A stretch of 64,000 nt of DNA from Candidatus Eiseniibacteriota bacterium (GTDB lineage Bacteria; Eisenbacteria; RBG-16-71-46): NCBI GenBank assembly GCA_036522895.1, contig DATDEX010000279.1, forward strand, positions 69,793-133,792. Reading direction: 5' to 3'. The position numbers and the translations under genes are program-made. The notes below the pieces were generated by a model that worked only from the letters and a program-made list of their open reading frames with translations, was not told the DNA's origin and did no database searches. Each line of letters begins with the position of its first letter. Within the stretch, counting starts at the first letter, position 1. Below are positions 28,501-60,059 of this stretch, in pieces.

Positions 28501-29454
28501 CAAGCCGACACCCTTCTCACTGGCGAACTCGTCGGATTCAGACCGGACAGCCTTCGTGCGCGCAGCGCCTGCTTCGGTCCAAGTGGGCCTCTCCCGGACG
28601 CTCGTATCACCGCACTTCTCGAGCTTCCCGACTCGTCTTCCATTCCCGTGCCGTTGTACGACGACGGTGCTCATGGGGACAGCTTGATAGGCGATGGCAT
28701 CTTCGGGGCAGTCGTTCCAACCGCGCGCGGATCGGGCGCCTATGTCCTCCGCCTTGATGGGACCATTGAACAGAGTGATGTTGTGCTAGTCCACCAACAG
28801 AGCTTTGCGACAGCGGTCGTCCAGCCTCTACCCGATCTCCAGATCGATGCGACTGGCGTCGTAATTTCACGGGTAGCCGACAGCGAGGACTCGCTCACTG
28901 TTGTCGCCACTGTCCGGAACGTCGGCTTGGCAGCCGCCGGTGGTGCGCTGATCCAGTTTGAAGAGCCTGCGGGCGTCGTCGCGACGAAGGTTGCCGATAT
29001 CGACTCCTCGGGCGCCATTACGGTCTCGGTGGGCTGGCGCCCGTCGCGAAGTGATTCGAGTTCCATGCTGGTCTACATCGACCGGGCCAGTCCTTTCCTT
29101 CAATGCCGCTACGATAACGATTCGGTTGCGGTTGTCCTGAATCCGAGTTCCTTGGCTGTGGAACCGGCCCACACGCCGATCGCGGTGTGGCTTGCGTCTC
29201 CCGCGCCGAACCCAGTCGTTGGCCACGCCATAATTCGTTTTGGCCTCCCACGCGCAGGTCGCATTAGTCTGAGCGTCTTCGACGTGGCCGGGCGCAGAGT
29301 TGCAACGCTCTTGGATGGCACTAAGAATGCCGGGGCTTATGCCGTGCCTTGGGGGGATGCGGAAGGGGGACGGCGCATCGGGCCTGGCATGTACTTCGTT
29401 GAGCTCCGGGCCGAGGGGCACCAGATCGTACGGCGGGCTGTGTTCCTCCGGTAG
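25591..29454 (+). CDS. Giant secreted protein: signal peptide, 5 tandem ~90-aa B-repeat/Ig-like modules, FN3, Lipase_2 (class 2 lipase) domain, C-terminal sorting-type beta-sandwich
   Basis: Signal peptide RICVVTLLLILASTF. Repeated ...SPSGSV.V.CGGSQ.FT.TP..CY.V..V.VDG.SVGA..SYTF.NVQ..HTISASF. Lipase motif LLVHGICGS...NIIAHSQGGL...IGTPNHGS. C-terminal ...ISLSVFDVAGRRVATL...GMYFVEL....VFLR. The start could also be 25399 or a later Met. Confidence 0.85.
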   Translation: MSIAEMECSAACRRMFTRIRKKRICVVTLLLILASTFMYPSLALANGTISGNVKTSSGTAVPYTRVTWGAVTTGGCINNPGHAFTNAAGNWQSPILINGSYSVGSGSSPCVDKAYLCTAGNAPLINNNNVTGINFIKPLYSISTSVGLGGAMTVTYGDDADSPTIAATGSVPAVCNALMHFTITPDGCHTIANVVVDGSSVGAVSTYTFSGVQANHSISVSFAANVTYTIVASAGANGTISPSGSVTVGCGGSQAFTITPSGCYQVADVLVDGVSVGARPSYTFTNVQTNHTISASFSTAAGYSITSSAGSNGSISPSGSVSVPCGGSQSFTMTPSPCYHVQSVVVDGTSVGAPGSYTFSNVQASHTISVSFTLDTYTIAATAGIGGSIAPSGSVVVNCGASRSFTIAAGTCYVISNVLVDGTSRGPITSYTFNNVQSGHTISASFAANSGVLPTIPTGLSVMNLGTGTSLHASWNPVTGATSYVLRRVGGGGTTDTPVSGTQTDITNLTRTTSYAFSAQAINGCGAGQFSPTVSRAPDWYPVLLVHGICGSSADFTQCSLSSLGELACIVPNPGLLGDVLKSAGISHVFAVNYPNNASIASVAPTVAQRVRDILTATGESRLNIIAHSQGGLVSRYATQTLGMSSRVANLVMIGTPNHGSEWAKWMILAPAFQPSWMKQIRASLGLDCLATGQAGYDLVPGSAFLNQLNYGNNTGHYDALANPFNPFQICPSHYAENLPSSTQCWLILGTGGWCGLPGAAKGSVGLCEPNDGVVSIANGRLSGLEAFYSRADDGLDPAPARHPRATHFAGSTQFRGHGAGCNLEELKHPTLISAAYLIATTGTLPGSPSAQPGEVATELGDPSEPWIQTADVSSAVTVGEVLRDTVTVGSAKAITFLQAAEAGGLDLAVIDPSGVRWSLADTLSGALSYEGDPEAGLQALTFGTPAHGRWVIESSSPSKAQNYSAAAFIQADTLLTGELVGFRPDSLRARSACFGPSGPLPDARITALLELPDSSSIPVPLYDDGAHGDSLIGDGIFGAVVPTARGSGAYVLRLDGTIEQSDVVLVHQQSFATAVVQPLPDLQIDATGVVISRVADSEDSLTVVATVRNVGLAAAGGALIQFEEPAGVVATKVADIDSSGAITVSVGWRPSRSDSSSMLVYIDRASPFLQCRYDNDSVAVVLNPSSLAVEPAHTPIAVWLASPAPNPVVGHAIIRFGLPRAGRISLSVFDVAGRRVATLLDGTKNAGAYAVPWGDAEGGRRIGPGMYFVELRAEGHQIVRRAVFLR
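26040..26900 (+). repeat. Intragenic tandem coding repeats (about 5 x 270 bp) encoding B-repeat/Ig-like modules
   Basis: The protein-level periodicity above is mirrored at nucleotide level (ggcac/ggatcgatcagcccatc...). Confidence 0.6.
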
Positions 29455-32636: not shown

Positions 32637-33368
32637 ATGCCTGCAACACTTGTTGTCCACCGCGGCGGCTGGGATGCCACCAAGGCTGACCTCGCCAGCG
32701 TCCTCGTGCCCGAGTCCACCGAGTCGTACCACCCCGTCCCGTACCATCGCTTCATCGAGGAGGTTGAGCTGCACATCCCGCGCTTCGGACTCGCCGTTCG
32801 CTCGTCGCAGTTCGCGCTCGCGCGGGAGGGAGGCCAGATGTTCGGCGTCCTCACCTGCTCGAACGGTACGCCCGATCGCGACTACGCCCTCGCCATCGGC
32901 GTGCGGAACAGCTACGACCGCAGCCTGGCCGTCGGACTGACGCTCGGCTCGCGGGTGTTCTGCTGTGACAACCTCGCCTTCTCGGGCGAGGTGACGATGC
33001 ACCGGAAGCACACGCTGAACGTCTTCCGCGATCTGCCCGACTTGATCTACCGGATGCTGTCGCAGGTGGCGGCCATGCGGCAGCGCAGCGACGGCGAAAT
33101 CGCGGCGATGAAGGTTCGCGAGCTGCCGCCGGCTCATGCACATCACCTGATGGTCGAGGCGATCAAGGCGAACGTTGCGCCCGCCTCGCGTCTGCCGAAG
33201 GTGATCGAGGCGTGGGATGAGCCGAAGCACGAGGAGTTCGCGCCGCGCACGGCCTGGTCCCTCTTCAATGCCTTCACCGAGATCCAGAAGGCGGGGGCGC
33301 CTCGGGCACAGATGGAGGGGAGCCTTCGGCTCAGTTCGCTCTTTCGGAAGGAGTTGTCACTCTACTGA
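32637..33368 (+). CDS. DUF932-like (phage/plasmid-related) protein
   Basis: Overall similarity to the TIGR03299/DUF932 pattern, judged by eye. Low certainty. Confidence 0.45.
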   Translation: MPATLVVHRGGWDATKADLASVLVPESTESYHPVPYHRFIEEVELHIPRFGLAVRSSQFALAREGGQMFGVLTCSNGTPDRDYALAIGVRNSYDRSLAVGLTLGSRVFCCDNLAFSGEVTMHRKHTLNVFRDLPDLIYRMLSQVAAMRQRSDGEIAAMKVRELPPAHAHHLMVEAIKANVAPASRLPKVIEAWDEPKHEEFAPRTAWSLFNAFTEIQKAGAPRAQMEGSLRLSSLFRKELSLY

Positions 33369-33677
33369 TTCAATCTCCGGGGCCGTCCGATTCTCGACGG
33401 CCCCGTCTTCATGTCGACGCGTGCAAGAGAAGACGGAGAAGCGGGGGTGGGGCGGCGCCCTTGCTCATGACCGTACGTTGCAGTACTTCACCGCGAGTGC
33501 CACATCGACGAACGTTTCCATTCGGATTCGCTCGCCGTCTGCGGGGCTCTGATTCAGTCGCGCGACCTCCGTGCCTGCAGGAGCGAGCGCCCCGACCCGT
33601 GGTCGCGTGGCACCCCGCACGGGCCGGTGCGTCGCAAGTCGTTGAACCAGCGGGAAGAAGCAGCTATCTTCGGCCCC

Positions 33678-34868
33678 ATGAAACCCATCAACCAGCGGAC
33701 TACTTCGGGCGAGCGACTACGAATCGCGGGGCTCTTCGCGGGGATTGGTGGCATTGAGCTCGGGCTGCACCGAGCCGGCCACGTGACCGCCCTCTTGTGC
33801 GAGTCGGATCCCGGTGCTTCCAAGGTCTTGGCCGATCGATTCTCGCTTGAGGTGGCACCAGACGTGCGCGACCTTGAGTCGCTCGGCGATGTCGACTTGG
33901 TCACCGCTGGGTTCCCCTGCCAGGACCTCAGCCAAGCGGGTATGACCGCTGGCATTCGGGGGAGCAACTCCGGTCTCGTCGATCACGTCTTCCGGCTCCT
34001 CGACCAGCGGAAGCGCGGTCCACGCTGGCTGCTCCTGGAAAACGTCTCGTTCATGCTCCACCTCGATCGTGGCCGCGGCATGCGCCACCTCGTCGACGAA
34101 CTCGAGAAGCGCCGTTTTCGCTGGGCGTACCGCGTAGTGGACACGCGGGCCTTCGGGTTGCCGCAGCGGCGCCACCGAGTCATCCTGCTCGCATCCCGCA
34201 GCGAGGACCCGCGCGGGATCCTGTTCGGCCAGGATTCAAGAGTAACAGAACCCACATTCTCCACGGAGCTCTGGTGTGGATTCTACTGGACGGAGGGACT
34301 TCGCGGACTCGGGTGGGCAGTCGACTCGGTGCCCACGCTCAAGGGCGGTTCGACGATTGGCATTCCATCCCCGCCAGCGATCTGGGATCCCGAGAGCGGT
34401 GAGATCTCCACCCCCGAGATCCGGGATGCCGAGCGGCTGCAGGGATTCGAGGCCGACTGGACGCTCCCGGCTCTTCAAGTTCCCGGTGTCCGACCAGGAC
34501 ACCGGTGGAAGCTGGTCGGGAACGCGGTGAGCGTGCCCGTGGCGAAGTGGGTGGGGGAGCGTTTGGCCTACCCAGAGCCGTTCGATGGCGCTCGCACCCT
34601 CGAGGAACTGTCGCCGGGCGTGGCGTGGCCCAAGGCCGCGTGGGGCGCGAAGGGGCGTGTCTTCTCGGTCTCGGTCTCCACCTGGCCCGTGCGCATCCGC
34701 ACCCCGCATCTGTCTCGGTTCGTGCGGTTCCCGCTGGCGCCACTGTCGTACCGAGCGGCATCGGGCTTCAAGAGTCGAATGGACGTGAGCGGACTCAACT
34801 TTGAAGACGCCTTCCGTCGCGCGATCGCGCGATACGTGAAGCGCGGCCTTCGGGTGGCCGTCGCCTAA
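33678..34868 (+). CDS. DNA (cytosine-5)-methyltransferase 1
   Basis: Motif I LFAGIGG, IV PCQDLS, VI ENV, VIII QRRHRVIL, X GNAV. Confidence 0.9.
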   Translation: MKPINQRTTSGERLRIAGLFAGIGGIELGLHRAGHVTALLCESDPGASKVLADRFSLEVAPDVRDLESLGDVDLVTAGFPCQDLSQAGMTAGIRGSNSGLVDHVFRLLDQRKRGPRWLLLENVSFMLHLDRGRGMRHLVDELEKRRFRWAYRVVDTRAFGLPQRRHRVILLASRSEDPRGILFGQDSRVTEPTFSTELWCGFYWTEGLRGLGWAVDSVPTLKGGSTIGIPSPPAIWDPESGEISTPEIRDAERLQGFEADWTLPALQVPGVRPGHRWKLVGNAVSVPVAKWVGERLAYPEPFDGARTLEELSPGVAWPKAAWGAKGRVFSVSVSTWPVRIRTPHLSRFVRFPLAPLSYRAASGFKSRMDVSGLNFEDAFRRAIARYVKRGLRVAVA

Positions 34869-35662
34869 TGGTCGAACCTCCCCCCAAGCCCATCCGTACC
34901 CTTGCCGATGTCTTGCGCGAATCGGAGCCGAGACCTCTTCCCGGCCCGGAGAGAGTGCGCGGCGAGAAAAACACGTACTCGACTCGCTTTGCTAACAACA
35001 TGGCTCGGCTGGTTGCCTTCGGACTGCGTGAGCAGTTCGGGGACTTCTTCCGCGGTATCCTGCCGCACGACGAGGGGGGCCTGGAGTCGACGGCGTGGGG
35101 CTCGAGGGGCACCGGCAGGCTCGACGTCAACTATTCGACGCCTGAACTGGGGCTCGGACTCGGGATCTCACTGAAGTCGGTTCACATCCCGGAGGAGAAA
35201 TCGGGACGCGCTCGGCGATACACGCACAACATGAAGCGCAACGACGAGGAGCTACGGGTCGAGTCGATCAGCTACCACACCCGGCAACCGTACGCGGTCA
35301 TGGTCGCGGTGCTCTTCCTGCCGTACGACTCCTGCACCGACGGGACGGACATCTCCTCGTTCGGCGCCTGGGCCGAGTACCTCCACGAGCTGGTCGGACG
35401 CACGGATCCAGGAGACGACGCGGCACTCTTTGAACGTGGATTCATCGGTCTCTACGATCCCGATCCAACCACGAACCGAATGGAGTTCTTCGACATCGAG
35501 CAGCCGCCTCCACGCAAGGGCCGGCCGCAGCGCTTACTTCCCTTCTCGGGATTCCTGAGCGAGGTCAAGAAGACGTACGACCGCCGGAACCACAAGGACT
35601 TCAAATGGGCAGACGATGTCCCGCTTGACGAGGTCCCACCCCCATACGGCGAGCCGACCTGA
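34868..35662 (+). CDS. Putative Type II restriction endonuclease partnering methyltransferase 1 (by position)
   Basis: Start overlaps the methyltransferase stop (taATGg). Loose PD-(D/E)xK pattern GRLDV...PELGLGLGISLKS. It lies between a C5-methyltransferase and Vsr. Confidence 0.45.
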   Translation: MVEPPPKPIRTLADVLRESEPRPLPGPERVRGEKNTYSTRFANNMARLVAFGLREQFGDFFRGILPHDEGGLESTAWGSRGTGRLDVNYSTPELGLGLGISLKSVHIPEEKSGRARRYTHNMKRNDEELRVESISYHTRQPYAVMVAVLFLPYDSCTDGTDISSFGAWAEYLHELVGRTDPGDDAALFERGFIGLYDPDPTTNRMEFFDIEQPPPRKGRPQRLLPFSGFLSEVKKTYDRRNHKDFKWADDVPLDEVPPPYGEPT

Positions 35663-35690
35663 AGCCTCCTCGTTGTCGGTTCGTCGGCGG

Positions 35691-36074
35691 ATGCAGGCCA
35701 CCCCCAGACGCGACACACAGTGCGAACTCGCGCTGCGCTCAGTGCTCCATCGGCTCGGCCTACGCTTTCGTGTTGATCGCAGGTTGCCTGATGCGCGGCG
35801 AAGAGCCGACCTGACTTTCGTCCGCGCCAGAGTGGTCGTGTTCGTCGACGGTTGCTTCTGGCACGGCTGCCCTCAACACGCATCATGGCCAAAGTCGAAT
35901 GCGGAGTGGTGGCGCGCCAAGATTGAGATGAACCGCCGGCGGGACATCGAGACGAGCCGCAAACTTCGACGGGCGGGTTGGAAGGTCGTTCGAGTGTGGG
36001 AACACGAAGACCCGCACCGGGCATCGCAACGGGTGGTCGCGGCCATTGGGGAGACAAGCTCGCCAAGACGCTAA
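35691..36074 (+). CDS. vsr: Very short patch repair endonuclease (Vsr)
   Basis: VVFVDGCFWHGCP plus the downstream W/H pattern typical of Vsr. Confidence 0.85.
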   Translation: MQATPRRDTQCELALRSVLHRLGLRFRVDRRLPDARRRADLTFVRARVVVFVDGCFWHGCPQHASWPKSNAEWWRAKIEMNRRRDIETSRKLRRAGWKVVRVWEHEDPHRASQRVVAAIGETSSPRR

Positions 36075-36288
36075 GGGCGATCTCACCAACAACGGAAGGC
36101 CGCCCGTGAGACCTGAGCTGGTCATAGCGTGCGTTGGCGAAGCGGTCCTCTCGGTGGAGGCTTCGATGCGCCTGGCCACGGGCAGAGGTAGGTACTTGGC
36201 GGGAGTGGCAGATGTCGCGCTCGCGGGAAGAGCTTACACTTGGCGGACGACCTGCCTCCAAGACAACTCGAATGGAAGGAGGAGTGCT

Positions 36289-36542
36289 CAGTGAATGGGA
36301 CCGACTATCAGATCGCACTGCTGCTGGCGACACTGTGCCTACGGCTTTCCTCGCTGGCCGCGGGACTGTTTCTGGTTCGGGGCGGCGTTCGCGTTCTGAT
36401 GCTCGATTCGACCGGACACGGCCTCGGATCGCGAGAGTGGCTATCCAGGTGCTGGCTTGGAGCGATGCTCGGTCTTGCACTAGTCGTCGGAGGCGCGATC
36501 CTAGTCTTCGGCAAAGGGTTGGGAGCTCTGGTTCACAGCTAA
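36289..36542 (+). CDS. Possible small 2-TM membrane protein
   Basis: Hydrophobic ORF (36240..36542 frame), preferred over the Arg-rich overlapping frame. GTG start guessed. Confidence 0.3.
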
Positions 36543-36577
36543 ACCCGCCCACCAAGGGCGCCAGCGTAGGGGGGGAC

Positions 36578-37333
36578 GTGCAGTTAACCGGCAGAGAATC
36601 TGTGGTTCGCGGGTTCATCGACGGATTGATTCCGCCCAGGTTGCGGCCGGGCAGCTTTGATCTCACGGTCGGTAGGATCGTCGTTCGGGGCGAGGAGCGA
36701 CACGACCCAGTCGTGATTCAACCGCAACAGACATTTCTCATCGAATCGGAACAGACCGTGACGGTCCCGATTGGGTACGTGGGGTACGCAATGCCGAAGA
36801 CGAGCCTTTGCAACGATGGGATCCTCGTCCTCAACACAGGGCTCGTCGACCCAGGCTACAACGGCAAGCTCTCGACGATCGCCATCAACTTCTCCGACAG
36901 CGACCAACGGATCCGGCGGGATACTGCGTTTCTGCGGCTGGTCTTTCACCAGCTTACGGGAGCCGATGCAGATCGCGAAGACGCACATACGCAAACCGCG
37001 ACCTTGGACGACCTCAAGTCCCGATCACGACATATCAGTGCGTCCTTCCTCGATGTGCCGGGCCAGGCCGACCGCATCATGCGTGAGCTGACCAACGATG
37101 TCATGGACAGACAACGCAACGCGATCTTGCTCCTCATCAGCACAATTGGCTTCCTATTTGTAATGTGGAACTTGGGGTCGTTCTTCCTCCTATCTCGACA
37201 GACCAACGCGATCGCAGATCGCACTGCGCAAACCGGGTCGCGGGAGCTCGGGGCACTTGAGGAGCGGGTGAAACAGCTCGATGAACGCGTGGCGAGGCTA
37301 CAAACCCTTGTCACACCGCCAAAAGCGCGATAG
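36578..37333 (+). CDS. dCTP deaminase/dUTPase-fold protein with a C-terminal TM helix and coiled coil
   Basis: LTGRESVVRGFIDGLIPPRLRP...DLTVG aligns with the Dcd N-terminus. GLVDPGYNGKLSTIAINFSD matches the Dcd/dUTPase motif (HRIDPGWSG / IDSDYRGE). TM segment AILLLISTIGFLFVMWNLGSFFLL, then heptad-rich tail. GTG start at 36578; the upstream ORF part is junk. Confidence 0.7.
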   Translation: MQLTGRESVVRGFIDGLIPPRLRPGSFDLTVGRIVVRGEERHDPVVIQPQQTFLIESEQTVTVPIGYVGYAMPKTSLCNDGILVLNTGLVDPGYNGKLSTIAINFSDSDQRIRRDTAFLRLVFHQLTGADADREDAHTQTATLDDLKSRSRHISASFLDVPGQADRIMRELTNDVMDRQRNAILLLISTIGFLFVMWNLGSFFLLSRQTNAIADRTAQTGSRELGALEERVKQLDERVARLQTLVTPPKAR

Positions 37334-37348
37334 CATCAAAGGATTCTT

Positions 37349-38251
37349 ATGATTCGATTGACCGTTTCTTCCGCCGACGAAGTCCTAGCGTGGCTCTCAC
37401 ATGAGCTCGTCCACCACGGGCGTGAAGTCCAGCCCCGGGGACGCCGCACCTTGGAGATAGCGCCTTGCGCGTTCACGCTCTCGAACCCCCGGGCACGCAA
37501 GATTGCCAACACACACCGACGTTGGAACGAGGCGCTGGCCGTCGGTGAACTGGCATGGCATCTGGCCGGCTCGGACGATCTCGATGCCATCGCGTATTAC
37601 GCGAAGGCGTGGCGCGGCTTCTCGGACGACGGCCGCACCATCCATGGAAGCTGCTATGGCCGCAAGATCTTCGGCGGCGGGGCGGGTGCTAGTCAGTGGG
37701 ACCGCGTCCGCGCTGAACTTCAGCACGATCCTGATTCGAGACGGGCACTGCTCGCAATTGCAGATCCGCATCATGACCTGAGCGCTTCGAGCAAGGATGT
37801 GCCGTGCCTGACGGCGTTGCAGTTTTTGATTCGTGACGGAGCGCTACATGCCGTCGCCTTCATGCGCAGTAATGACCTCATCTGGGGGCTTTGCTACGAC
37901 CTCTACCTGCTCACCATGCTTCAAGAACTGATGGCCTGCGAGCTCGGCGTGGGACTAGGCCAGTACACGCACGTCGCCACCTCGATGCATGTCTATGAGC
38001 AGCACTTGGAGATGGTGAGGCGAATCGCCGACTCGAACCCGCCTAGGATTGCTCCGCCAATGGAGCCTCTCGGCCAGCCCAAGCAGAAGGAGGAGTTCAT
38101 CCGGCTCGAGCGTGTCTTGAGGGAGGGTGGCAATGCGACGACCGAAGGGTTGGATCCTTTCTGGAAGGGGCTTGCGAAGCCGCTACTCCGACTGGCCGAA
38201 AGACGTCGCGCGCGGCTGCACCCGACGCCGACGCACGAGATAACCGTCTGA
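37349..38251 (+). CDS. Thymidylate synthase / dCMP (dUMP) hydroxymethylase family protein
   Basis: ELAWHLAG, GSCYG, DPDSRRALL, DVPCLTALQF...MRSNDLIWGLCYDLYLL, THVATSMHVYEQH all align to ThyA conserved blocks including the catalytic Cys. Confidence 0.8.
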   Translation: MIRLTVSSADEVLAWLSHELVHHGREVQPRGRRTLEIAPCAFTLSNPRARKIANTHRRWNEALAVGELAWHLAGSDDLDAIAYYAKAWRGFSDDGRTIHGSCYGRKIFGGGAGASQWDRVRAELQHDPDSRRALLAIADPHHDLSASSKDVPCLTALQFLIRDGALHAVAFMRSNDLIWGLCYDLYLLTMLQELMACELGVGLGQYTHVATSMHVYEQHLEMVRRIADSNPPRIAPPMEPLGQPKQKEEFIRLERVLREGGNATTEGLDPFWKGLAKPLLRLAERRRARLHPTPTHEITV

Positions 38252-38273
38252 GCGTGACGCCCGGCGGCGGAGA

Positions 38274-38717
38274 TTGCAGCACGCGCACGGGCGGCGCCAT
38301 CTGAGGTGGGACACGTCCTTGAGTGACATCAGCGTTGAAGCCTTAGGGCAGCTACGGTTGGCGGCATGGCGCGCAAGAGACCACGCGCGCACCTACAGCG
38401 GTATCAAGGTCGGTGCGGCTGTCTTGACCGCGGCGGGCGAGGTATTCGCCGGGTGCAATCTCGAGCATCGTTTCCGGGCCCATGATATTCACGCCGAGAC
38501 GAACGCAATCGGCTCCTTCGTCGCGGGCAGCGTGTCGACCGTCGTCGCGGTGTTGGTGGCATCAGAGGAAGCGCTCTTTACGCCGTGTGGCGGGTGCATG
38601 GATTGGATCTTCGAGCATGGTGGAGCGGATTGCGTGGTCTACGTCATGAGCTCCCGGGATACGGCGCCGATGACGTGGCGCGCCTCCGAGCTCATGCCGC
38701 ATTACCCGCATCAGTAA
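38274..38717 (+). CDS. Cytidine/deoxycytidylate deaminase (CDA-fold) protein
   Basis: HAETNAI (H-A-E) and TPCGGCMDW (PC-x-x-C) zinc-ligand motifs. Upstream of the HAE block: ...SGIKVGAAVL, as seen upstream of the H-A-E zinc motif in CDA-fold enzymes. Confidence 0.75.
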   Translation: MQHAHGRRHLRWDTSLSDISVEALGQLRLAAWRARDHARTYSGIKVGAAVLTAAGEVFAGCNLEHRFRAHDIHAETNAIGSFVAGSVSTVVAVLVASEEALFTPCGGCMDWIFEHGGADCVVYVMSSRDTAPMTWRASELMPHYPHQ

Positions 38718-38759
38718 CCGGGTTGGTGGGCTGACGTTGGTGCGATCCGGCATCATTCC

Positions 38760-38937
38760 GGGTAATGGGCGCCTCGACCACCTCGGGTACCTGAGCATGG
38801 GCTCGACGTCTATCTACGCCCGCATGACGGGCCAACACCGGGTTGCGGTGTTCCGCGAGCTCGCCCGCTCGCCGTGGATCGTCCAGCCCGGAACGGGATT
38901 CTCCGCAGTTCGACAACTTGAACGGAAGTCGCCATGA
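38760..38937 (+). pseudogene. 3'-terminal fragment (~50 codons) of a tyrosine recombinase gene. About 85% nucleotide identity to the 3' end of the intact gene at 44883..45725.
   Basis: Encodes ...GSTSIYARMTGQHRVAVFRELARSPWIVQPG, versus intact ...RSTSIYARITDRHRVAVFRELARSPWIVQPG. Both copies end ...gtcgccATGaa. Confidence 0.65.
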
Positions 38938-38977
38938 ACGCACGCCGTCTGCCGCTCATGATCCGGAGCTTGGCACC

Positions 38978-40177
38978 ATGGTCCGTTTGAAGATCGCTGA
39001 ACTCTTTGCGGGTATTGGTGGTGTCGCGGGCGGGCTCCTGGACGCCGGCGGCTTCGATCCCGTGCTGCTTATCGATCGTGAGCCGCTGGCAGCGAAGGTC
39101 TTCAATGCCAACTTCCCGACCTACGCGCCCCGCTACCACACGCGATCTGTCAGCGCCCGACTCACCGGGAGGGAGCTGCTGGAGCAGGCCGGGGGCGAGA
39201 TCGACGGCATTCTCGGCTGCCCGCCATGTCAAGGATACAGCGCCGCCGGCCTTCGTGACCCGGACGACGCGCGCAATCAGCTCCTGGACGAGATGCGGCG
39301 ACTCATCGCCTCGATCGAGCCGCTCTTCTTCCTCATCGAGAATGTCCCCAGCCTCAGGAGTTCCCATCAGTTTGAACGGTTCGGCCAGTCGCTCGAATCG
39401 AAGTACGAGATTGCGGCGCAAGTCCTCAACGCGGCCGAGTTCGGCATCCCACAACTTCGGCGCAGGCTCGTGGTGTTGGGCGTCCACCGGTGCGCGAAAG
39501 TATCGCCGTCCTTTCCGACGCCGACGCACGGCGGCAAGGGACGCGTCTTCGACTACTGCAGTGGCAGGTATCTCCGACCCAGCTCACCTGCCGGTCGTCA
39601 GGCGTTTCAAGTCGATCCCGGACTTCATTTCGCACGCCGCAAGATGGTGACGCTCTCAGCAGCCCTTGACGACTTGCCTGCCAACCCACCCCTTCATCTT
39701 GGTCGAGGCCTGTCTGGCGACGCTCCACTCGAGTACGCAGGACCGGCGCGGACCACCTTCCAGCGCCGAATGCGGCGAGAATCTCGCCGGCCGACGCACC
39801 ATGTTGCCTGGCGACATCGATCGACCCTCGTCAAGCGTCTGGCGCGGATCGCTCCCGGCGACTGCCCACCAGGCACGGGCGGTAGGTCGCGCAACGCGGA
39901 GTACTTCAGCCAGGCCTACGCTCGGCTTCACCCAGCCGGTCTGGCCCGCACCGTAACGACGAACTTTCACAATCCAGGATCCGGCCGCTTCACTCACTAT
40001 GCGGTGCCGCGCGCCTTGACGCTGCGAGAGGCGATGCGGCTTCAAAGCTTCCCGGACAGCTTCGTCCTGCCGGAAATGCACCTGAGTGAAGCTGAGCGGC
40101 TTATCGGCAACGCCTTCCCCCGGCGCTTAGCTGAAGTCCTTGGTCGACACATCGCGCGGCTGCTCAGCGGGAGGTAG
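38978..40177 (+). CDS. DNA (cytosine-5)-methyltransferase 2
   Basis: LFAGIGG, PPCQGYS, ENV, QLRRRLVV motifs. Confidence 0.9.
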   Translation: MVRLKIAELFAGIGGVAGGLLDAGGFDPVLLIDREPLAAKVFNANFPTYAPRYHTRSVSARLTGRELLEQAGGEIDGILGCPPCQGYSAAGLRDPDDARNQLLDEMRRLIASIEPLFFLIENVPSLRSSHQFERFGQSLESKYEIAAQVLNAAEFGIPQLRRRLVVLGVHRCAKVSPSFPTPTHGGKGRVFDYCSGRYLRPSSPAGRQAFQVDPGLHFARRKMVTLSAALDDLPANPPLHLGRGLSGDAPLEYAGPARTTFQRRMRRESRRPTHHVAWRHRSTLVKRLARIAPGDCPPGTGGRSRNAEYFSQAYARLHPAGLARTVTTNFHNPGSGRFTHYAVPRALTLREAMRLQSFPDSFVLPEMHLSEAERLIGNAFPRRLAEVLGRHIARLLSGR

Positions 40178-42391
40178 TGTCGTCGGCTCCGGCCCGGCAT
40201 CGCCCAGCGCTTCCCCGCGCCGAACGGTCAGTTTGGCCATTCGCTCAAGCTGCTTCCTGAGCCTCTGAAGAGACACGTACTCTATCGTTGTGCGTGGAAC
40301 TGCCATGCCCCGCAGCCCCTTCATGGCACTCAGGTTCGCGGCGATGGCTTGCTGCAATTCCGAAATAAGCTTGTGACCGAGCACCTTGCACTTCTCGTGT
40401 GCCTCGTAGATCACGAAGGGTATGAGTCGCGGCAGCCGGCGCCGGCTCATGATGTTGTGGTCTTGATCAAGGGCCCATTTGGATGAGTGGACCCCACGAA
40501 CGATCAGGTCGGCGACGTGCATCACCCGTGCGGATCGTTGTTCGGCGCCTCGCGTGCGTATCGAGTCGAGAAACTCGAACCGTGGGAACCGAATCTGTGG
40601 GCTGCCGCCGGGACGCCCCAGGTAGAACATGCCAAAGTCCGCGTACTCGCACATGCGCACGTACTCGTCCTCGGCAATGTCCCGACCGTCGAACCACGGC
40701 CGCTCGCCGGAGCCCGAGTGGTTGTAGCGCTTCACCTGTTCCGCCAGCTGCTCTTCGAAGAAGCGTCGCCAATCGCCAGGCTCTCGGACGCGGTGGACCC
40801 GGAAGAGGCTCGTCACCATCGCGGTGAAGGGCCGGACGATCACGCAGGTGGAGTAGTACTGCGCCCGGTCAGGCACCGGGGACAGCGAGCACAAGAGCCG
40901 AGTCATCGCGACCGAGTCGCTGATCAGACCCATCCGTTCGAGTTCCCAGTGCGGATCGATCGCCTGACCGAAACGCAGCTCCGATCCCCGCTGGATGTAC
41001 CAGTTGAGAATCCGCGAAAATGTTCGCAGCTGCGTCGATTTCACCGCACCCGCGAACACACGGCGGTCAGAGTCCATCACGTGGCGCAGGATCTTGTAGC
41101 TCAGCCGGATCCCTTCGCGGACCATTTCTCCATAGGATGTCCGATTCGTGTAATTCTGCAGCTCGCGGCTCTGCGGAGACACGGCTCCGTCGCGCAGCAG
41201 CACGTGCGGCTTGGGCAACGCATCGCCGCCTTGTACCGCGTGGGCACCATAGGGCTGCGCCATGCCCGAGAGCAGCGCCTCATCGATCCGGTACTGGACG
41301 ACATCGAGCGCCGTTTTCCTCAGGTGTTCGAACTCCCCGTCGTCGAGGTCCTGGAACCACGGTCGCGAAATGATCATGCCCTTGTTGCCTGGATCCTCCA
41401 GCGCTGCGCGCGTGATCGGAATACCGTGATAGGGCGACGGAAACTTTCCGGGAAAGCTGGGAGGAAGGTCGACATATCCGGCACCGTTATTGAACCACAG
41501 AACCAAACGATCGTCGTCGGCGTAGGCCGCGGCAGGCATGCCTCGCACTTCACCTGGGTGGCTCGATCCGTCGGTACCCGCGATGATCAGTTGTGGCTGG
41601 CGGTCGGGTTCCGGCGTTACCGTCAGGGAGTGTAGGAATGTCGGCCCAAACACGTGGCCTGCGAGCTCGGCCGCCACGGCAGTCCAATCGTCAGCGCCCA
41701 CGTGTCGTTCCACGTCGCGATGGTCGACCGGTACCGGCTTCGCCTCGATCTCCGGAAGATCGGGGATCCTCCAGACCGCCGGGTTGATCCCCAGTTCACC
41801 GTGCACAAAGCGCGCAAAGTCCTGGAGCTGACGTTCCACCTTCTGCCGGTGGGCCTCATCGTTGCCGATGCTCGCGTCGCGCACATCGGCAACGTCCTCA
41901 TCGAGACGATGCGCTATGTCCTTCAGCATGCGAAGGATCAGTTCGCGCGGCTCCTCCTGCAGCAGGCCCTCGGCCGCCTGGCGCATGACGGCCGCCGAGC
42001 GACCCTCGAACTGTTCAACGGTATCGACGTAATAGGCCAGCGCCGTGGTTGGTCCGAGCTCCCACAAGGCCTGATTGAGATCAGGCTGGGAGAGCGGCGT
42101 CAGCGGCGACACGCGTGGCGCCACGGTGTACCGGGCGGCGGCACCGTCGGTTGACCCGTCAGACAGCAGGAAGCCGCGGGCTACCAACTTGGCCACAGTC
42201 CGGTGGTAGGTCGGGAGCGTCGCGGTATCGCCTATACCTCGAGGCTGGACCACTCCCGACTCGTCCTCAACGTGCGCCGAGTCCTTGGCGTGCTCCCAGA
42301 TGTCACGGATGGTCCGCTTGTCCTCCGGCGCATCCTGCAGGTAGCGGACGATCCAAGCGTCGCGTTCGTAAATGCTGATCTGCGTACTCAC
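40127..42391 (-). CDS. Large protein with NurA-like nuclease domain (C-terminal ~480 aa) and an N-terminal extension
   Basis: LIIAGTDGSSHPG matches the NurA motif I (hhAhDGS). The 3' end overlaps methyltransferase 2 convergently. It is adjacent and co-directional with the HerA-like ATPase. Confidence 0.5.
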   Translation of the reverse strand: MSTQISIYERDAWIVRYLQDAPEDKRTIRDIWEHAKDSAHVEDESGVVQPRGIGDTATLPTYHRTVAKLVARGFLLSDGSTDGAAARYTVAPRVSPLTPLSQPDLNQALWELGPTTALAYYVDTVEQFEGRSAAVMRQAAEGLLQEEPRELILRMLKDIAHRLDEDVADVRDASIGNDEAHRQKVERQLQDFARFVHGELGINPAVWRIPDLPEIEAKPVPVDHRDVERHVGADDWTAVAAELAGHVFGPTFLHSLTVTPEPDRQPQLIIAGTDGSSHPGEVRGMPAAAYADDDRLVLWFNNGAGYVDLPPSFPGKFPSPYHGIPITRAALEDPGNKGMIISRPWFQDLDDGEFEHLRKTALDVVQYRIDEALLSGMAQPYGAHAVQGGDALPKPHVLLRDGAVSPQSRELQNYTNRTSYGEMVREGIRLSYKILRHVMDSDRRVFAGAVKSTQLRTFSRILNWYIQRGSELRFGQAIDPHWELERMGLISDSVAMTRLLCSLSPVPDRAQYYSTCVIVRPFTAMVTSLFRVHRVREPGDWRRFFEEQLAEQVKRYNHSGSGERPWFDGRDIAEDEYVRMCEYADFGMFYLGRPGGSPQIRFPRFEFLDSIRTRGAEQRSARVMHVADLIVRGVHSSKWALDQDHNIMSRRRLPRLIPFVIYEAHEKCKVLGHKLISELQQAIAANLSAMKGLRGMAVPRTTIEYVSLQRLRKQLERMAKLTVRRGEALGDAGPEPTTLPPAEQPRDVSTKDFS

Positions 42392-44061
42392 GAACGTGGC
42401 TGCCCATCGCGCGTGCTGGTCGGAATCTCGCGTCGAGCGGTCCAGCCTCGTTTGGCCAAGTCCGCGAAAATGTCAGGCGTCGCGCCGCCGACCGGCGTTC
42501 GCCGCCGACGGATGTCGACCAGGGTGGCGTGCTTGACCGTCTCGGACACGCCGCTCAGCACGCACGTGCCGATCGGCGCCCTGGTCAGCCGATGAATCAT
42601 CGCCTCCGGGGCATCCGAAAACACGCCGCGCAGGGATTCGAGCTGATCAGGCTCGATGGCGAAGATGAACCGCGTAAGCAGACGCTTCAGCAGCGGCCGA
42701 TCGAGGTCGGCGGGGCTCTGACTGGTGAGGATGAGGCCGATCCGGTAGTGGCGCCCGATGCGCGCGATCTCGCGCAGGACCTGTGTGGTGACCACCTTGT
42801 CATCGTTGGGGGCGATGAGGTGTGCCTCGTCCATCGACAAGACCACGAAGGGAATCTTTCGGGCGCGCGCCAGTCGCTGGATATCGCGCGCCACGGCCGC
42901 GGCGATAAGCCGCAAGTCCGACACCGAGAGGCCACGGCAGTCGATGTTGATAATTCTGCCGGGCGTGAGCTCCTGCTCCCAATCGAAGGGTGCGCCGATG
43001 TACGGGATGTTTTCCAGGCTGCGCGCTCGGAGCATCGCCGGGCGGAAAGTTTGTGCTTTCATCTCGAGCGCCGGGGCCAGCTCTTCGATCTTGGCGATCA
43101 GCGCGTCGACGCCGAACTCTTTGCCACCGCGCAGCACCTGATTGAGCAGCGACTCGTGGGCGAACTGAACCAGTGTTTCGATATTCGTGCCCTTGTTGAT
43201 GGCGGGGATCGAATCGATGATTTCGTCCGGCTGGAGAGCGCTAAGCGGCAGGCTGAAGCCGTCGCCTGGCCGAACATTGGTGCCACCGAGGCTCGTGGTC
43301 GCATCAACCATCTCACCCAAGGGGTCGATGTTGATCTGCGGGACGCCATGACTCCAGAGCTCCTCGGCCACGACGCCGCGGCCATATGACTTGCCGCGTC
43401 CGATTCCACCGCAGAAGAAGATGTGCGTTTGCACCACATCGCGGCGCAATCGCACGGTCACGTCGGGCAATCCATGAATCGTTCCCACTTCAAGGCCGCT
43501 CTGCGAGTCGGGCGCAAAATTGAGCGCCTGCGCGATCAGCCCCGGCTGCACGACCACCACGGGACTGCCCGAGAGGGGGAGGGTCTCGACAGACTCGATT
43601 CGGTCGAGGCTTCCGTCCAATTTGAAGACCACTTCCTCGAGCGGATCGGCCGAGGCGGCGCGATAGATGACGGTCGACTGGCCCTCTGGCGCGTACCTGG
43701 TCTCAAACGGGATCACGTCGCTCACCGTCGAGCTCAGTGCGTCCTCATGCGGGTTCTGCTCCCACACGCCTTCGACCCGAATGAGCGTGAGGACGCTCGG
43801 GCCATTAATCTGCTTTCCCCGGACTCCCAACACCCGGCCGGCGGTCGTGTCTTGCCCGGGAAGAAGCCGGAACAGCACCTTGTCCAGGCTCGGAGACTCG
43901 CGCTCGCAGATGACCCGGCCGATCACGACGTCATTCTGATCCGCCTCGGTCCCGACGAGAGGCGGCTGATCGAACTCGGCTTCCTCCTGCCCCCTTGCGC
44001 TCATGGTGCCATCCTTCATAGCATCTCCTTCGATTCGGTGCGCGGGTCCTTCGGTGAACAT
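42388..44061 (-). CDS. HerA/FtsK-superfamily ATPase (HAS-barrel + RecA-like core)
   Basis: Walker A GGIGRGKS. Walker B VVLSMDEAH. LILTSQSP (TQxP). N-terminal HAS-barrel-like VVIGRVICERESP...RVLGVRGK. Start placed at MFTEGP; the listed 44157 start adds an Arg/Pro-rich N-terminus. Confidence 0.7.
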   Translation of the reverse strand: MFTEGPAHRIEGDAMKDGTMSARGQEEAEFDQPPLVGTEADQNDVVIGRVICERESPSLDKVLFRLLPGQDTTAGRVLGVRGKQINGPSVLTLIRVEGVWEQNPHEDALSSTVSDVIPFETRYAPEGQSTVIYRAASADPLEEVVFKLDGSLDRIESVETLPLSGSPVVVVQPGLIAQALNFAPDSQSGLEVGTIHGLPDVTVRLRRDVVQTHIFFCGGIGRGKSYGRGVVAEELWSHGVPQINIDPLGEMVDATTSLGGTNVRPGDGFSLPLSALQPDEIIDSIPAINKGTNIETLVQFAHESLLNQVLRGGKEFGVDALIAKIEELAPALEMKAQTFRPAMLRARSLENIPYIGAPFDWEQELTPGRIINIDCRGLSVSDLRLIAAAVARDIQRLARARKIPFVVLSMDEAHLIAPNDDKVVTTQVLREIARIGRHYRIGLILTSQSPADLDRPLLKRLLTRFIFAIEPDQLESLRGVFSDAPEAMIHRLTRAPIGTCVLSGVSETVKHATLVDIRRRRTPVGGATPDIFADLAKRGWTARREIPTSTRDGQPRS

Positions 44062-44361
44062 GACTTGCTGTGGGGGAGGAGCCGGCGCGGGTACGCCGGC
44101 TCCGACCCCCGTTCCCCCCGGTCGGGAGCTAGGCCGCCTGACGGCGGACCTGCGCACCCGGAGCCTGCTTCTTCACGAGATCGATGCTGTGGTCACAGTC
44201 CGCCTCGTTGACGTAGCCGTCCGTGGAGCGACAGATCTCCCGGCCGTTGGGGGACATGAACCGCCAGTACCACTGGCGGTCCCGACCCGGAAACTTCTCG
44301 AAGTAGTACATCCGCGCGATCACCTCCTTCCGTTGAGGGATCCGGAGCCGCTGACAGCAAC

Positions 44362-44850
44362 GTGTTATTCATTTCGCGGTTCCGAGAAACACGAAATGAT
44401 TACCGCTGCCGTGCGTCGGCTACAAGTCAGGTATTTGTGAATTCGCGCGACAACCTCACTCCCGAGCAGCGGGTACGGGCGATGCGGGCGGTGCGGTCGA
44501 CGTCCTCGGCCGAGGCCACCGTCCGGGACGCGCTCCGGGCTCTAAAGGTGCGGATTGGTAGAGGGCTCACCTTGCCGGGCCGTCCGGACTTTGTTCTCCC
44601 CGACCAACGGATCGCCCTCTTCGTCAACGGCTGCTTTTGGCACGCCCACGGATGTCGGCCGCTGTACCCGGTCGCGAACCGTTCCTACTGGAAGCAGAAG
44701 CTCGCGTCGAATGTCCGGCGCGACCGTCGAGTTCGCCGCCAACTGAATAGGGCAGGGTGGAGCGTCGTCGTCTTGTGGGAGTGCAAGCTCTCGAAGCAGG
44801 ACCCCGCCGCCTCCGTCCTGCGGGTGATGAAGAGAGCTCGAAGGTATTGA
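44362..44850 (+). CDS. Vsr-family endonuclease paralogue with Asn in place of the catalytic Asp
   Basis: IALFVNGCFWHAHGC read directly from cgtcaacggctgcttttggcac. Otherwise Vsr-like. Confidence 0.75.
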   Translation: MLFISRFRETRNDYRCRASATSQVFVNSRDNLTPEQRVRAMRAVRSTSSAEATVRDALRALKVRIGRGLTLPGRPDFVLPDQRIALFVNGCFWHAHGCRPLYPVANRSYWKQKLASNVRRDRRVRRQLNRAGWSVVVLWECKLSKQDPAASVLRVMKRARRY

Positions 44851-44882
44851 CGGGCGGTGATGCCGGAGCTACTTTGAAATGA

Positions 44883-45725
44883 GTGCGCCGTTTAGCAGAA
44901 GCGCGCACTCCAAGGCTCCGCGGCACGATACCCCCAATCCTTGCTGCGTTTGAGCCGATCCCCGAGTCGCTGAAGGGCCCGGGGCTGCCCGTCGCCCGAC
45001 ACAAAGACGCCCGGTTTGCGGGCGATCGCTACCCACTGCGCGCTTCTGCTATTACGCGCAGTGACGTCGGGGCGGCGATCCTAGATCTCCCCACCTTGTC
45101 CATCCTCCCGCACTCCCATCAGCGCCCACCTCGCTACCTCACGCAGGGTGAAGTTCAGCGCTTCTTCTCGGTGATCGCCGACCCGCGCGATCGGGCGTTA
45201 TTCGTGCTGATGTACCACCACGGCCTGCGCGTGGGGGAGGTCCTGCTGTTAACTCGCGGCGACCTCGACCTCACTCGCGGACGACTGCTCGTCCGCCGCC
45301 TCAAGGGCGGCGTCTGGAGCGAGCAGATCCTCTTCGCAGGGACGATTCAGCTGCTCCGTGCCCATTTGGCCCGGACTGCCGGAGGGCCCGAGGCGCCGCT
45401 CTTTGCCGGCCGAGACGGACCGCTCCGCTGCCGGCAGATCCAGCTGCGGTTCGTTCGATACCGCCAGCGTGCTGGGCTCTCCGCACACCTGACGACTCAC
45501 TCGCTGCGGCATTCGATCGCCACCCACCTGCTCGACGCGGGCGTCAACCTCGAGTTCGTCCAGGACCACCTCGGCCACCAGAGCATCCGCTCGACGTCGA
45601 TCTATGCCCGCATCACCGACCGGCACCGCGTCGCCGTGTTTCGCGAGCTCGCGCGCTCCCCGTGGATCGTCCAGCCCGGTAGCGAAGTTCCCGCCGTCCA
45701 ACCACCAGAAACGAGGTCGCCATGA
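44883..45725 (+). CDS. Tyrosine recombinase (short form; catalytic domain)
   Basis: LRHSIATHLLDAGVNLEFVQDHLGHQSIRSTSIYARI. Confidence 0.8.
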   Translation: MRRLAEARTPRLRGTIPPILAAFEPIPESLKGPGLPVARHKDARFAGDRYPLRASAITRSDVGAAILDLPTLSILPHSHQRPPRYLTQGEVQRFFSVIADPRDRALFVLMYHHGLRVGEVLLLTRGDLDLTRGRLLVRRLKGGVWSEQILFAGTIQLLRAHLARTAGGPEAPLFAGRDGPLRCRQIQLRFVRYRQRAGLSAHLTTHSLRHSIATHLLDAGVNLEFVQDHLGHQSIRSTSIYARITDRHRVAVFRELARSPWIVQPGSEVPAVQPPETRSP

Positions 45726-49009: not shown

Positions 49010-49057
49010 CTCTTGACGAACCTCTTTCCTCCCAGACAAGAAACACGGAGGCCACCC

Positions 49058-59901: not shown

Positions 59902-59969
59902 CAGGAGCAGTAGCAGGCAACCTCCGCGGCGCTTGCACGAACCCCGTAAGTTCGTGTAAACACGCCGGC

Positions 59970-60059
59970 GGAGAGGTGCGAGAGTGGTTGAATCGGGCGG
60001 TCTCGAAAACCGTTATACCCGTAAGGGTATCGAGGGTTCGAATCCCTCCCTCTCCGCCA
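59970..60059 (+). tRNA. tRNA-Ser (anticodon CGA), class II with long variable arm
   Basis: Manually folded: acceptor GGAGAGG/CCTCTCC. Anticodon stem GCGGT/ACCGT with loop CTCGAAA. Variable stem ATACCC/GGGTAT. T-arm GAGGG-TTCGAAT-CCCTC. Discriminator G, then CCA. Confidence 0.85.

Follow-up and report, generated by a model that had tools for sequence, protein, structure and literature searches.

The DNA analysed here, a stretch of 64,000 nucleotides from a Candidatus Eiseniibacteriota contig (the window), carries at 36578–38251 two adjacent genes, one for a protein of the Dcd/dUTPase fold (DCD-like) and one for a protein of the thymidylate synthase (TS) fold (TS-like), which are followed by the gene of a zinc deaminase. 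The DCD-like and TS-like genes are a strictly conserved, translationally coupled core pair: in 26 non-redundant loci, a tail-anchored DCD-like gene lies immediately upstream of a TS gene with a cytosine-type aspartate (Asp-type), usually with a 4-bp overlap. We read the whole as a mobile device that diverts cytosine nucleotides, likely in defence against phages or mobile elements beside a restriction-modification (R-M) cassette, with a probability of about 0.5. The biochemical part of this reading, a dCMP-specific C5 transferase fed by a non-deaminating Dcd-fold enzyme, is judged likely from the residues and folds described below. The genes concerned are as follows (aa, amino acids; TM, transmembrane; ORF, open reading frame; RBS, ribosome-binding site).

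36578..37333, +: core gene 1, tail-anchored Dcd/dUTPase-fold protein, 251 aa (Pfam, AF2/Foldseek, family profile)
37349..38251, +: core gene 2, TS-fold pyrimidine C5-transferase, 300 aa, of the MilA / phage 'pyrimidine hydroxymethylase' clade (PF00303, PDB match to MilA)
38319..38717, +: accessory zinc deaminase, probably of the homotetrameric cytidine-deaminase type, 132 aa (dCMP_cyt_deam_1)
36291..36542, +: small ORF, 83 aa, two predicted TM helices, directly upstream of the DCD-like gene (RBS, counterpart in locus L087)

The DCD-like and TS-like core pair

The three genes that the original prediction, made from the letters alone, had named Dcd-like, ThyA-like and CDA-like are all real and intact, and a profile search gave Pfam matches for each. 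The ORF at 36134–37333 (+) matches DCD (PF22769, E 2.5e-10) and dUTPase, with the DCD match beginning only at residue 190; the ORF at 37349–38251 (+) matches Thymidylat_synt (PF00303, E 1.3e-23), and that at 38274–38717 (+) matches dCMP_cyt_deam_1 (E 1.1e-11). Alignment with homologues from other genomes places the DCD-like start at GTG 36578, after a G-rich RBS, which gives a protein of 251 aa with the conserved N-terminus MQLTG. The extent of 36289–38717 first given for the three genes was therefore too wide on its left side: 36289–36577 lies outside the DCD-like gene, and 36291–36542 is a separate ORF in another frame. For the deaminase, TTG 38319 (132 aa, GAGGTGG upstream) is the more likely start than TTG 38274, and the same call is made in the JGI copy and in L087, a locus whose TS is 68% identical to that of the window.

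A PDB search returned MilA as the best solved relative of the TS-like protein (E 1.8e-47 over residues 21–236); thymidylate synthases matched at ~1e-14 and T4 dCMP hydroxymethylase at 3.6e-12. All eight thyA models of NCBIfam score below cutoff, the best of them (TIGR03283) with 85.9 bits against a cutoff of 174.55. These unmet cutoffs, together with the closeness to MilA, indicate that the TS-like protein, judged by its sequence, is not a housekeeping ThyA. The active-site residues are intact (nucleophile C153, E67, H214 and Y216), so the catalytic Cys of the original prediction is indeed present, and it is accompanied by a cytosine-specifying Asp, D184, which aligns with ThyA N177. R131 and S174 stand at the positions of MilA K133 and A176. 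In MilA, Asp186 specifies cytosine where Asn specifies uracil, and Lys133′ and Ala176 favour ribonucleotides, whereas deoxy-specific enzymes carry Arg and Ser there (PMC5175136). Across the TS-like family C153, E67, R30, R131/R132 and R173 are invariant, including the phosphate-binding Arg residues, and the Asp plus Arg/Ser signature is found in all 26 adjacent pairs. D184, R131 and S174, combined with the intact catalytic residues, place the protein in the MilA clade, with a substrate signature that points to a C5-transferase specific for dCMP. For phage Asp-type TS enzymes, modification of dCMP has been demonstrated by experiment (bioRxiv 10.1101/2024.12.05.627091), and 78 of 78 recovered viral TS-like proteins carry the Asp.

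The predicted product is 5-hydroxymethyl-dCMP (5-hm-dCMP), with 5-methyl-dCMP less likely. A hydroxymethylase is favoured by the nearest characterised relative, which is one, and by a C-terminus unlike that of TS: the Pfam TS match of the window protein ends at profile position 226 of 266, and an early end is also seen for T4 dCMP hydroxymethylase (CH). It is also favoured by HMUDK (5-hmdU DNA kinase), which needs a hydroxymethyl group and whose gene follows the Asp-type TS gene in L009 and L012, and by the aGPT-Pplase3/ADDT genes beside sister Asp-type TS genes. The TS-like family is rare, with 208 matches among 5.8 billion proteins, named in the sources only as 'thymidylate synthase'.

The AlphaFold (AF2) model of the DCD-like protein (pLDDT 80) consists of a beta domain (residues 1–130) and a very long helix (residues 160–245). 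Foldseek aligns it with probability 1.0 to bifunctional DCD-DUT, Dcd and dUTPase structures, with a target-normalised TM-score of up to 0.78. In a search of the family profile against PDB, the best matches are Thermococcus dUTPases that go under the name 'dCTP deaminase-like' (9ln0, 8y1w; E 9e-17 to ~1e-16). The score for the Dcd model TIGR02274 is 44.6 bits, below its cutoff of 92.8. Bacillus halodurans DCD-DUT has the Glu of the Dcd 'TLE' motif, and the archaeal dUTPases have Met there. The equivalent position (E. coli E138) is T, A, V, I, S or L, and never Glu, in 55 of 55 DCD-like family members, while D91 (the Asp of the VDPG motif, motif III), P92 and N104 are invariant across the same 55. 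Like the Thermococcus P45 enzymes, the family has thus lost the Dcd Glu and kept the Asp of the DPG motif, the residue used for alpha-phosphate hydrolysis. The archaeal enzymes, however, are soluble and ~155 aa long. In the window protein the profile match stops at about residue 132, and the arm with dUTPase motif V is replaced by a conserved FLDVPGQ motif, a TM helix (~residues 176–200) and a coiled coil; a hydrophobic 19-mer (TM segment) follows residue 130 in 53 of 53 full-length members.

The absence of the Dcd Glu throughout the family and the retention of the dUTPase-type Asp identify the DCD-like protein, as far as sequence can tell, as a tail-anchored member of the trimeric dUTPase superfamily and not a deaminase. 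The dCTP deaminase of the original prediction was accordingly dropped: the catalytic Glu is missing and the protein is anchored in the membrane. It is probably a pyrimidine dNTP pyrophosphatase and, given its partner, a dCTPase. The family is rare but diverse, with 294 clusters (50% identity) at E ≤ 1e-30 in an exhaustive profile search of 1.84 billion representatives.

Distribution, neighbours and linkage to restriction-modification

Related loci, cited here by L numbers, were collected, 80 of them by a locus scan with one genome per species, for which a 10-sequence TS alignment served as the query, a 41-sequence one being too diverse; ORFs were called in these loci and searched with profiles made from the window proteins. 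The pair is sporadic, occurring in ~26 species of at least nine phyla, and was found in Alpha- and Gammaproteobacteria, Myxococcota, Acidobacteriota, Cyanobacteria, Firmicutes, Binatia, Bacteroidota and Planctomycetota. In a DCD-anchored search of metagenome contigs, a TS gene adjoins every strong match that has downstream sequence. Chance is a poor account of this gene combination: every related locus examined has the DCD-like and TS-like genes side by side.

The location of the pair is variable. Its site in Agrobacterium is a variable islet flanked by arginase/OCD genes on one side and biotin genes on the other. In Agrobacterium tumefaciens L004 the islet holds, besides the pair, just one gene, for an HNH/DUF7662 protein (6722–7882), a candidate nuclease partner that is possibly modification-dependent; in another strain, EcoRII-Vsr-Dcm genes, two unknown genes and a dCMP-type deaminase lie beside the pair. 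The two contents are seen at the one site in A. tumefaciens GCA_900466035 (HNH and the pair) and GCA_019969875 (EcoRII-Vsr-Dcm, deaminase and the pair). In the window, the island around the module has ~62% GC and extends to a tyrosine integrase (58909–59901) beside tRNA-Ser (59970, CGA). At this junction the GC content rises from ~0.62 to ~0.70 (window 59900–64000), and two further tRNA genes follow (Ser-GGA 62389, Ala-CGC 63117). The junction marks the island boundary and the host chromosome beyond it is very GC-rich; the module is in a mobile island, outside core synteny. Identical copies of the sequence were met only in JGI metagenomes (L091–L093).

Neighbouring genes were surveyed by unbiased clustering and by a census in which 150 ORFs beside the pair, taken from 25 loci, were assigned to Pfam families. 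The only recurrent families are C5 DNA_methylase, Vsr, dCMP_cyt_deam_1/MafB19-deam, HMUDK_hel and Peptidase_M78/HTH, together with restriction endonucleases (REases) of the EcoRII, MvaI/BcnI (twice), NaeI and MTaX1 families; the remaining neighbours are heterogeneous housekeeping genes. Families of N6- or N4-methyltransferases, dNMP kinases, MilB-type glycosidases and other biosynthetic genes do not recur in this census. Two unrelated metagenomic loci carry a ThiF (E1-like) gene, three small ORFs and an HTH/Peptidase_M78 pair just upstream of the core pair (L001 6185–8125, L090 4333–6751); this set may be a neighbouring ubiquitin-like conjugation defence module or a regulator set.

These surroundings bear on a rival explanation, by which ordinary pyrimidine metabolism (Dcd, ThyA, Cdd) or a nucleoside-antibiotic pathway of the MilA type has come by chance to lie between R-M genes. 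Source databases do label the proteins thymidylate synthase, dUTPase or dCTP deaminase. However, no equivalog model comes near its cutoff, Asp stands in place of Asn177, the DCD-like protein lacks the Dcd Glu and has a membrane anchor, and the genes lie in an island of different GC beside tRNA-Ser and not in core synteny. The case that the original prediction had set against itself, an ordinary thyA kept in core synteny, is not what was found, and housekeeping Dcd/ThyA/Cdd is largely refuted by the unmet cutoffs, the residues and the island. The antibiotic pathway draws on MilA being the closest solved relative. With MilA and BcmA (mildiomycin, bacimethrin) the window protein shares the Cys, Glu, His and Tyr, the cytosine-specifying Asp and a C-terminal extension unlike that of TS. 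MilA carries Lys133 and Ala176, fitting ribo-CMP, whereas the window protein and its whole family carry the deoxy-type Arg and Ser, which argue against a CMP-specific MilA/BcmA role, and neither a MilB-type N-glycosidase nor another biosynthetic gene recurs nearby; the pathway was rejected on these two grounds. Taken together, we consider both forms of this explanation highly improbable.

A specific link to genes of cytosine methylation was found. A C5-methyltransferase (MTase) gene lies within 7 kb of 13 of the 26 pairs (15 of 26 within 10 kb), and a Vsr gene lies near 12 of 26. Among 53 sister loci, which hold distant TS-like genes without a DCD-like partner, the corresponding counts are 2 (Dcm) and 0 (Vsr); among 80 viral loci they are 5 and 1. 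In Fisher tests of the 26 pairs against the 53 sister loci (Dcm, 13/26 vs 2/53, p = 3e-6; Vsr, 12/26 vs 0/53, p = 2e-7), the specific link of the pair to these two kinds of gene is statistically real. The linked loci vary in the order and orientation of their genes and in the REase family, which suggests repeated association rather than one inherited cassette. In the window the linked cassette lies directly upstream of the small ORF and comprises three genes.

33627..34868, +: C5-cytosine DNA methyltransferase of the linked type II R-M cassette (PF00145 E 1e-41; PADLOC MTase_II E 7e-139; TIGR00675 above cutoff; syntenic with L087)
34868..35662, +: probable cognate restriction endonuclease, 264 aa, PD-(D/E)xK fold of the CCGG/CCWGG family
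35616..36074, +: Vsr very-short-patch T:G mismatch endonuclease of the linked cassette (TIGR00632 116.8 bits, cutoff 97.85; Pfam Vsr)

With MTase, endonuclease and Vsr adjacent, this first cassette fits a type II 5-methylcytosine (m5C) R-M system with Vsr. Homologues of the 264-aa ORF number 680 proteins, all 'hypothetical'; they always follow a C5-MTase gene with overlapping stop and start codons, with or without Vsr, and they occur in unrelated genomes that have no DCD-TS pair. As a genuine R-M unit, the first cassette is also found on its own.

Comparison with L087 separates the module from the genes that follow it. L087 holds the same block, PDDEXK-RadC-Dcm-264aa-Vsr-small ORF-DCD-TS-deaminase, and then directly an integrase. 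The window has an extra 6.3 kb (38776–45120) with Dcm2, the 754-aa ORF, HerA, DUF1508 and Vsr2, whose left edge is a degenerate copy of the integrase 3′ end (38776–38890).

38776..38890, +: degenerate remnant of the tyrosine-integrase 3′ end (cf. 45564–45678; blastn of L087 against the window, three-way alignment)
38843–40177 (alternative start 38978): second C5-MTase (Dcm2)
40127–42391, −: 754-aa ORF, partner of HerA
42388–44157, −: HerA-type ATPase (PADLOC HerA and mad8 models)
44362–44850: second Vsr (Vsr2)
44883–45725: integrase gene whose 3′ end the remnant copies

Its absence from L087 indicates that the second R-M-like block is an independent insertion and not part of the module. The original prediction had joined the trio and both flanking R-M modules into one system; this was abandoned, as the trio travels with the first cassette and the second block is missing from L087. 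The flanks that it named, methyltransferase1-REase-Vsr1 and methyltransferase2-HerA-NurA-Vsr2, stand as to the MTases, HerA and the Vsrs, which have Pfam matches, and fail as to NurA, for which the 754-aa ORF gave no signal in Pfam, NCBIfam or PADLOC. This ORF has no match of any kind in those three collections or in PHROGs and may be an uncharacterised HerA-associated effector rather than NurA.

A zinc deaminase is present in 11 of the 26 pair loci, three of them of the CDA type (including the window) and eight of the dCMP-deaminase/MafB19 type. The deaminase is accessory, not core, and comes from two different families, so that its place in the originally proposed core trio is lost. In the window protein the zinc motifs HAE and PCGGC are intact; mouse and human CDA are the best PDB matches (E 4e-11), and the NCBIfam model cyt_deam_tetra (TIGR01354) gives 65.8 bits against a cutoff of 113.65. 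The same deaminase family follows the TS gene in L011, L031 and L087. HMUDK occurs in 2 of the 26 pair loci (L009, L012), in both after the pair.

The small ORF at 36291–36542 has a GTG start with a strong RBS (GGAAGGAGG) upstream. An 87-aa counterpart with a shared hydrophobic pattern occupies the same position in L087, and JGI also called a gene here; no counterpart was seen in loci more distant than close relatives such as L087. It may be a lineage-specific accessory and could be a membrane partner of the tail-anchored enzyme.

Proposed role, related systems and competing readings

In the mechanism that we propose, the tail-anchored dUTPase-fold protein, probably a membrane-bound trimer, would hydrolyse dCTP (perhaps dUTP) to the monophosphate and pyrophosphate, as T4 gp56 does. 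The second and best supported step would be carried out by the TS-fold enzyme, which would use 5,10-methylene-tetrahydrofolate to place a one-carbon unit on C5 of dCMP and so yield 5-hydroxymethyl-dCMP or, less likely, 5-methyl-dCMP. In the lineages that have it, the CDA-type deaminase may then turn a C5-modified (deoxy)cytidine compound, or dC, into the uracil/thymine series. Since no dNMP kinase is encoded in the module or recurrent beside the pair, the net effect would be an irreversible drain of dCTP into non-canonical pyrimidine nucleotides. The pair is cargo of variable islets and islands, preferentially recruited next to Vsr-bearing m5C type II R-M cassettes, and it would defend by depleting dCTP, by supplying a 'wrong' nucleotide to invader replication, or both. 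From the translational coupling of their genes, the two core proteins may assemble into a complex. The membrane anchor and the coiled coil are candidates for keeping the potentially toxic activity in check.

The closest parallel to these steps is the T4 set gp56/gp42/Cd, with which the module would share the conversion of dCTP to dCMP and C5 hydroxymethylation by a TS fold; it also has an associated cytosine deaminase, and in its TS-fold enzyme, as in that of T4, Asp occupies the N177 position and the Arg/Ser residues are of the deoxy type. The analogy with the T-even logic of dCTPase, dCMP hydroxymethylase and dCMP deaminase, drawn on in the original prediction, holds for the first two genes, whereas the deaminase is only accessory. 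The window module also differs in being encoded on a bacterial chromosome or island, in lacking a dNMP kinase and a glucosyltransferase and in the membrane anchor of its first enzyme, and its TS-like protein is distant from gp42 (E 3.6e-12) and far closer to MilA.

Among bacterial systems, DS-4 (TS, dNMP kinase, HMUDK, TIR and Nmad2) is anti-phage in E. coli, DefensePredictor-validated, with its mechanism not established (PMC13092281). It likewise places a TS-fold enzyme of the same broad clade in a defence operon, and DS-4-like loci were recovered as sister groups. These loci, however, carry an Asn-type TS, kinases and a TIR effector, have no DCD-like partner and show Dcm/Vsr linkage in only 0–2 of 53; in the window module no HMUDK, dNMP kinase, aGPT-Pplase, TIR or Nmad2 gene is present, such genes occurring only in sister loci. 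With the dCTP deaminase (kinase-deaminase fusion) and AvcD, the module shares the concept of removing cytosine deoxynucleotides from the pool available to phages. There is no sequence relationship, and a predicted pyrophosphatase and C5 transfer, with an optional CDA-type deaminase, take the place of deamination; the suggested kinship with these depletion defences does not amount to membership, and a PADLOC search (E ≤ 0.01) gave no family match for the products of the trio.

The patchy spread, the location in islets and islands, the R-M neighbours and the validated sister system together best support an anti-phage or anti-mobile-element role, which by this analogy is the most likely one. The module looks like an undescribed system, kin to nucleotide-centred defence and to TS-based hypermodification-type systems. 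Literature searches for the unit (TS, Dcd/dUTPase, Vsr/Dcm and defence) found no published description, although a prior in-silico mention is possible, and the suggestion that the unit had not been described before agrees with this result and with the PADLOC search.

Several points weigh against this reading. If the drain on dCTP were constitutive it would be toxic, and the window has no evident regulator, the HTH-M78 pair being present only in some loci. Depletion leaves the partnership with m5C R-M and Vsr unexplained, and HMUDK in two loci implies that a modified nucleotide reaches DNA at least there. Without motif V, the DCD-like protein could be a nucleotide sensor or anchor instead of an enzyme. 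Five of the seven phage Asp-type TS enzymes tested made 5m-dCMP, which favours a methylase (bioRxiv 10.1101/2024.12.05.627091). The neighbour census relies on crude ORF calls and on loci that are not phylogenetically independent, and, with no PADLOC match for the three proteins, the defence role is drawn from context and analogy.

The surroundings of the module (Dcm, Vsr) all concern cytosine C5 in DNA, which raises the alternative of pre-replicative DNA modification. Host or invader kinases would phosphorylate the product, and 5-hydroxymethylcytosine (5hmC) or 5-methylcytosine (5mC) would enter DNA. The purpose could be to protect the DNA of the island or of the host, either as anti-restriction or so that the adjacent REase can be established, or to mark replicating invader DNA for a modification-dependent nuclease or downstream enzymes. 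The gene logic is that of T4 gp56 plus gp42 and of Xp12-type modules. The gene of HMUDK, which phosphorylates hydroxymethyl bases in DNA, comes after the pair in L009 and L012 and stands inside the Asn-type variant of L071, L075 and L081; the sole other islet gene of Agrobacterium L004 encodes the HNH/DUF7662 protein; and the window cassette comes just after PDDEXK, RadC and DUF932 genes, which are typical of conjugative-element entry regions. However, no dNMP kinase recurs beside the pair, and T4 needs its own kinase, gp1, for hm-dCMP. Partial replacement of C would also be costly in a genome of 63–70% GC, and 5hmC or 5mC in invader DNA would block, not help, the neighbouring REases. The tail-anchored DCD-like partner is present in 0 of 80 viral loci, so the pair is not simply a phage modification cassette; the reading as a prophage modification cassette was rejected for this reason and for the housekeeping genes that flank the islets. 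On balance, we regard DNA modification as rather unlikely.

The Xp12-type phage module that this alternative evokes combines an Asp-type TS (dCMP methylase) with a 5mC-selective deaminase to replace C fully by 5mC, and phage Asp-type TS genes co-localise with PF00383/MafB19 deaminases that prefer 5m- or 5hm-dC nucleotides (bioRxiv 10.1101/2024.12.05.627091). The same PF00383/MafB19 accessory is found in 8 of the 26 bacterial loci. The bacterial pair differs in its tail-anchored DCD-like partner, and the window deaminase is of the CDA type, not the dCMP-deaminase type.

A second alternative starts from the Dcm/Vsr linkage, for which it would account, and assigns the module to house-cleaning in cells that bear C5-MTases. 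The dNTPase would hydrolyse, and the deaminase inactivate, C5-modified or analogue dC nucleotides, such as 5m-dCTP from the turnover of methylated DNA or natural analogues such as 5-azacytidine, which trap C5-MTases on DNA. In animals, CDA and dCTP-directed enzymes detoxify decitabine-type analogues. The deaminases linked to Asp-type TS genes prefer 5m/5hm-dC nucleotides (bioRxiv 10.1101/2024.12.05.627091). However, the invariant core is the TS-like enzyme, which produces dCMP substituted at C5 and for which 5-substituted compounds cannot serve as substrates; the model hinges on the deaminase, which 15 of the 26 loci lack; and half of the pairs have no Dcm nearby. House-cleaning is therefore distinctly improbable.

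As to why a device that diverts cytosine nucleotides should be tied to R-M and Vsr genes, three possibilities may be named: Vsr may buffer T:G mispairs that arise from the pool imbalance; modified nucleotides that reach invader DNA may cooperate with, or be processed by, Dcm, Vsr or the deaminase; or 5-substituted dC nucleotides may be cleaned up in C5-MTase-bearing cells. A 'Trojan-horse nucleotide' immunity is a speculative and unlikely proposal in which a chromosomal, membrane-anchored pathway like that of T4 would make 5hm-dC or 5m-dC nucleotides that, excluded by host kinases, would be accepted by the invader's replication machinery or broad-specificity dNMP kinases. Invader DNA would then be mislabelled or poisoned at cytosine C5, as one unit with the m5C MTase, REase and Vsr; Vsr or the deaminase, for example, might turn mislabelled bases into nicks or mutations. 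If true, immunity would here follow a new principle that goes beyond the mere depletion of nucleotides.

If the diversion of cytosine nucleotides is confirmed, the module would represent a new architecture among nucleotide-pool-based immune systems and would show that bacteria have co-opted the restriction-escape chemistry of phages (dCTPase plus dCMP C5-transferase). A first functional approach would also open to the barely studied bacterial TS-like operons with HMUDK, aGPT-Pplase, TIR or HTH-M78 partners, of which only DS-4 has been shown to defend. The linkage to m5C R-M and Vsr poses a concrete puzzle on cooperation between defence layers. Possible tools include a dCMP-specific C5-transferase and perhaps deaminases or dNTPases selective for 5-modified dC, like the deaminases used in methylome sequencing.

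Sister loci and other features of the window

The sister loci fall into several arrangements. Asn-type (uracil) TS genes adjoin HMUDK, often with a TIR protein, in L058, L067, L069, L072, L078, L079 and L085, the arrangement that corresponds to DS-4, and a DCD-HMUDK-TS(Asn) variant, sometimes with a ThiF-like gene upstream, is found in L071, L075 and L081. An Asp-type TS gene forms a conserved operon with aGPT-Pplase3/ADDT, an HTH-Peptidase_M78 regulator and two or three conserved ORFs that belong to no Pfam family in 17 species of many phyla (L037–L040, L050–L057, L059, L062, L064, L065, L070, L084). The Asp/Asn discriminator thus varies with the partner genes, which supports its functional meaning. 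The aGPT-Pplase3/ADDT operon looks like a bacterial 'hypermodification-type' system that acts on cytosine, not thymine. In L035, L042–L048 and L086 (Clostridia, Streptococcus mitis), HMUDK lies directly upstream of an Asp-type TS gene with an APH-family phosphotransferase nearby, and an ABC transporter follows in some of these loci, another distinct operon type.

In the window itself, a promoter and terminator scan of 33200–39100 found nothing above shuffled expectation. A PHROG search matched the TS-like protein to phage TS families and the DCD-like protein weakly; the deaminase, the small ORF, the 264-aa REase and the 754-aa ORF had no PHROG match. Just upstream of the linked cassette lie ParB_N, PDDEXK, RadC and DUF932 genes. 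The same island also encodes an OLD-family ATPase-TOPRIM nuclease (3141–4844, −), a 942-aa Ser/Thr kinase with a PMT_2-like membrane domain that runs off the window start, a large serine recombinase (13918–15510, −) and a 1419-aa FG-GAP repeat protein. Large CARDB/abhydrolase/DUF7379 proteins (25399–29454, 49013–52471) recur in L087.

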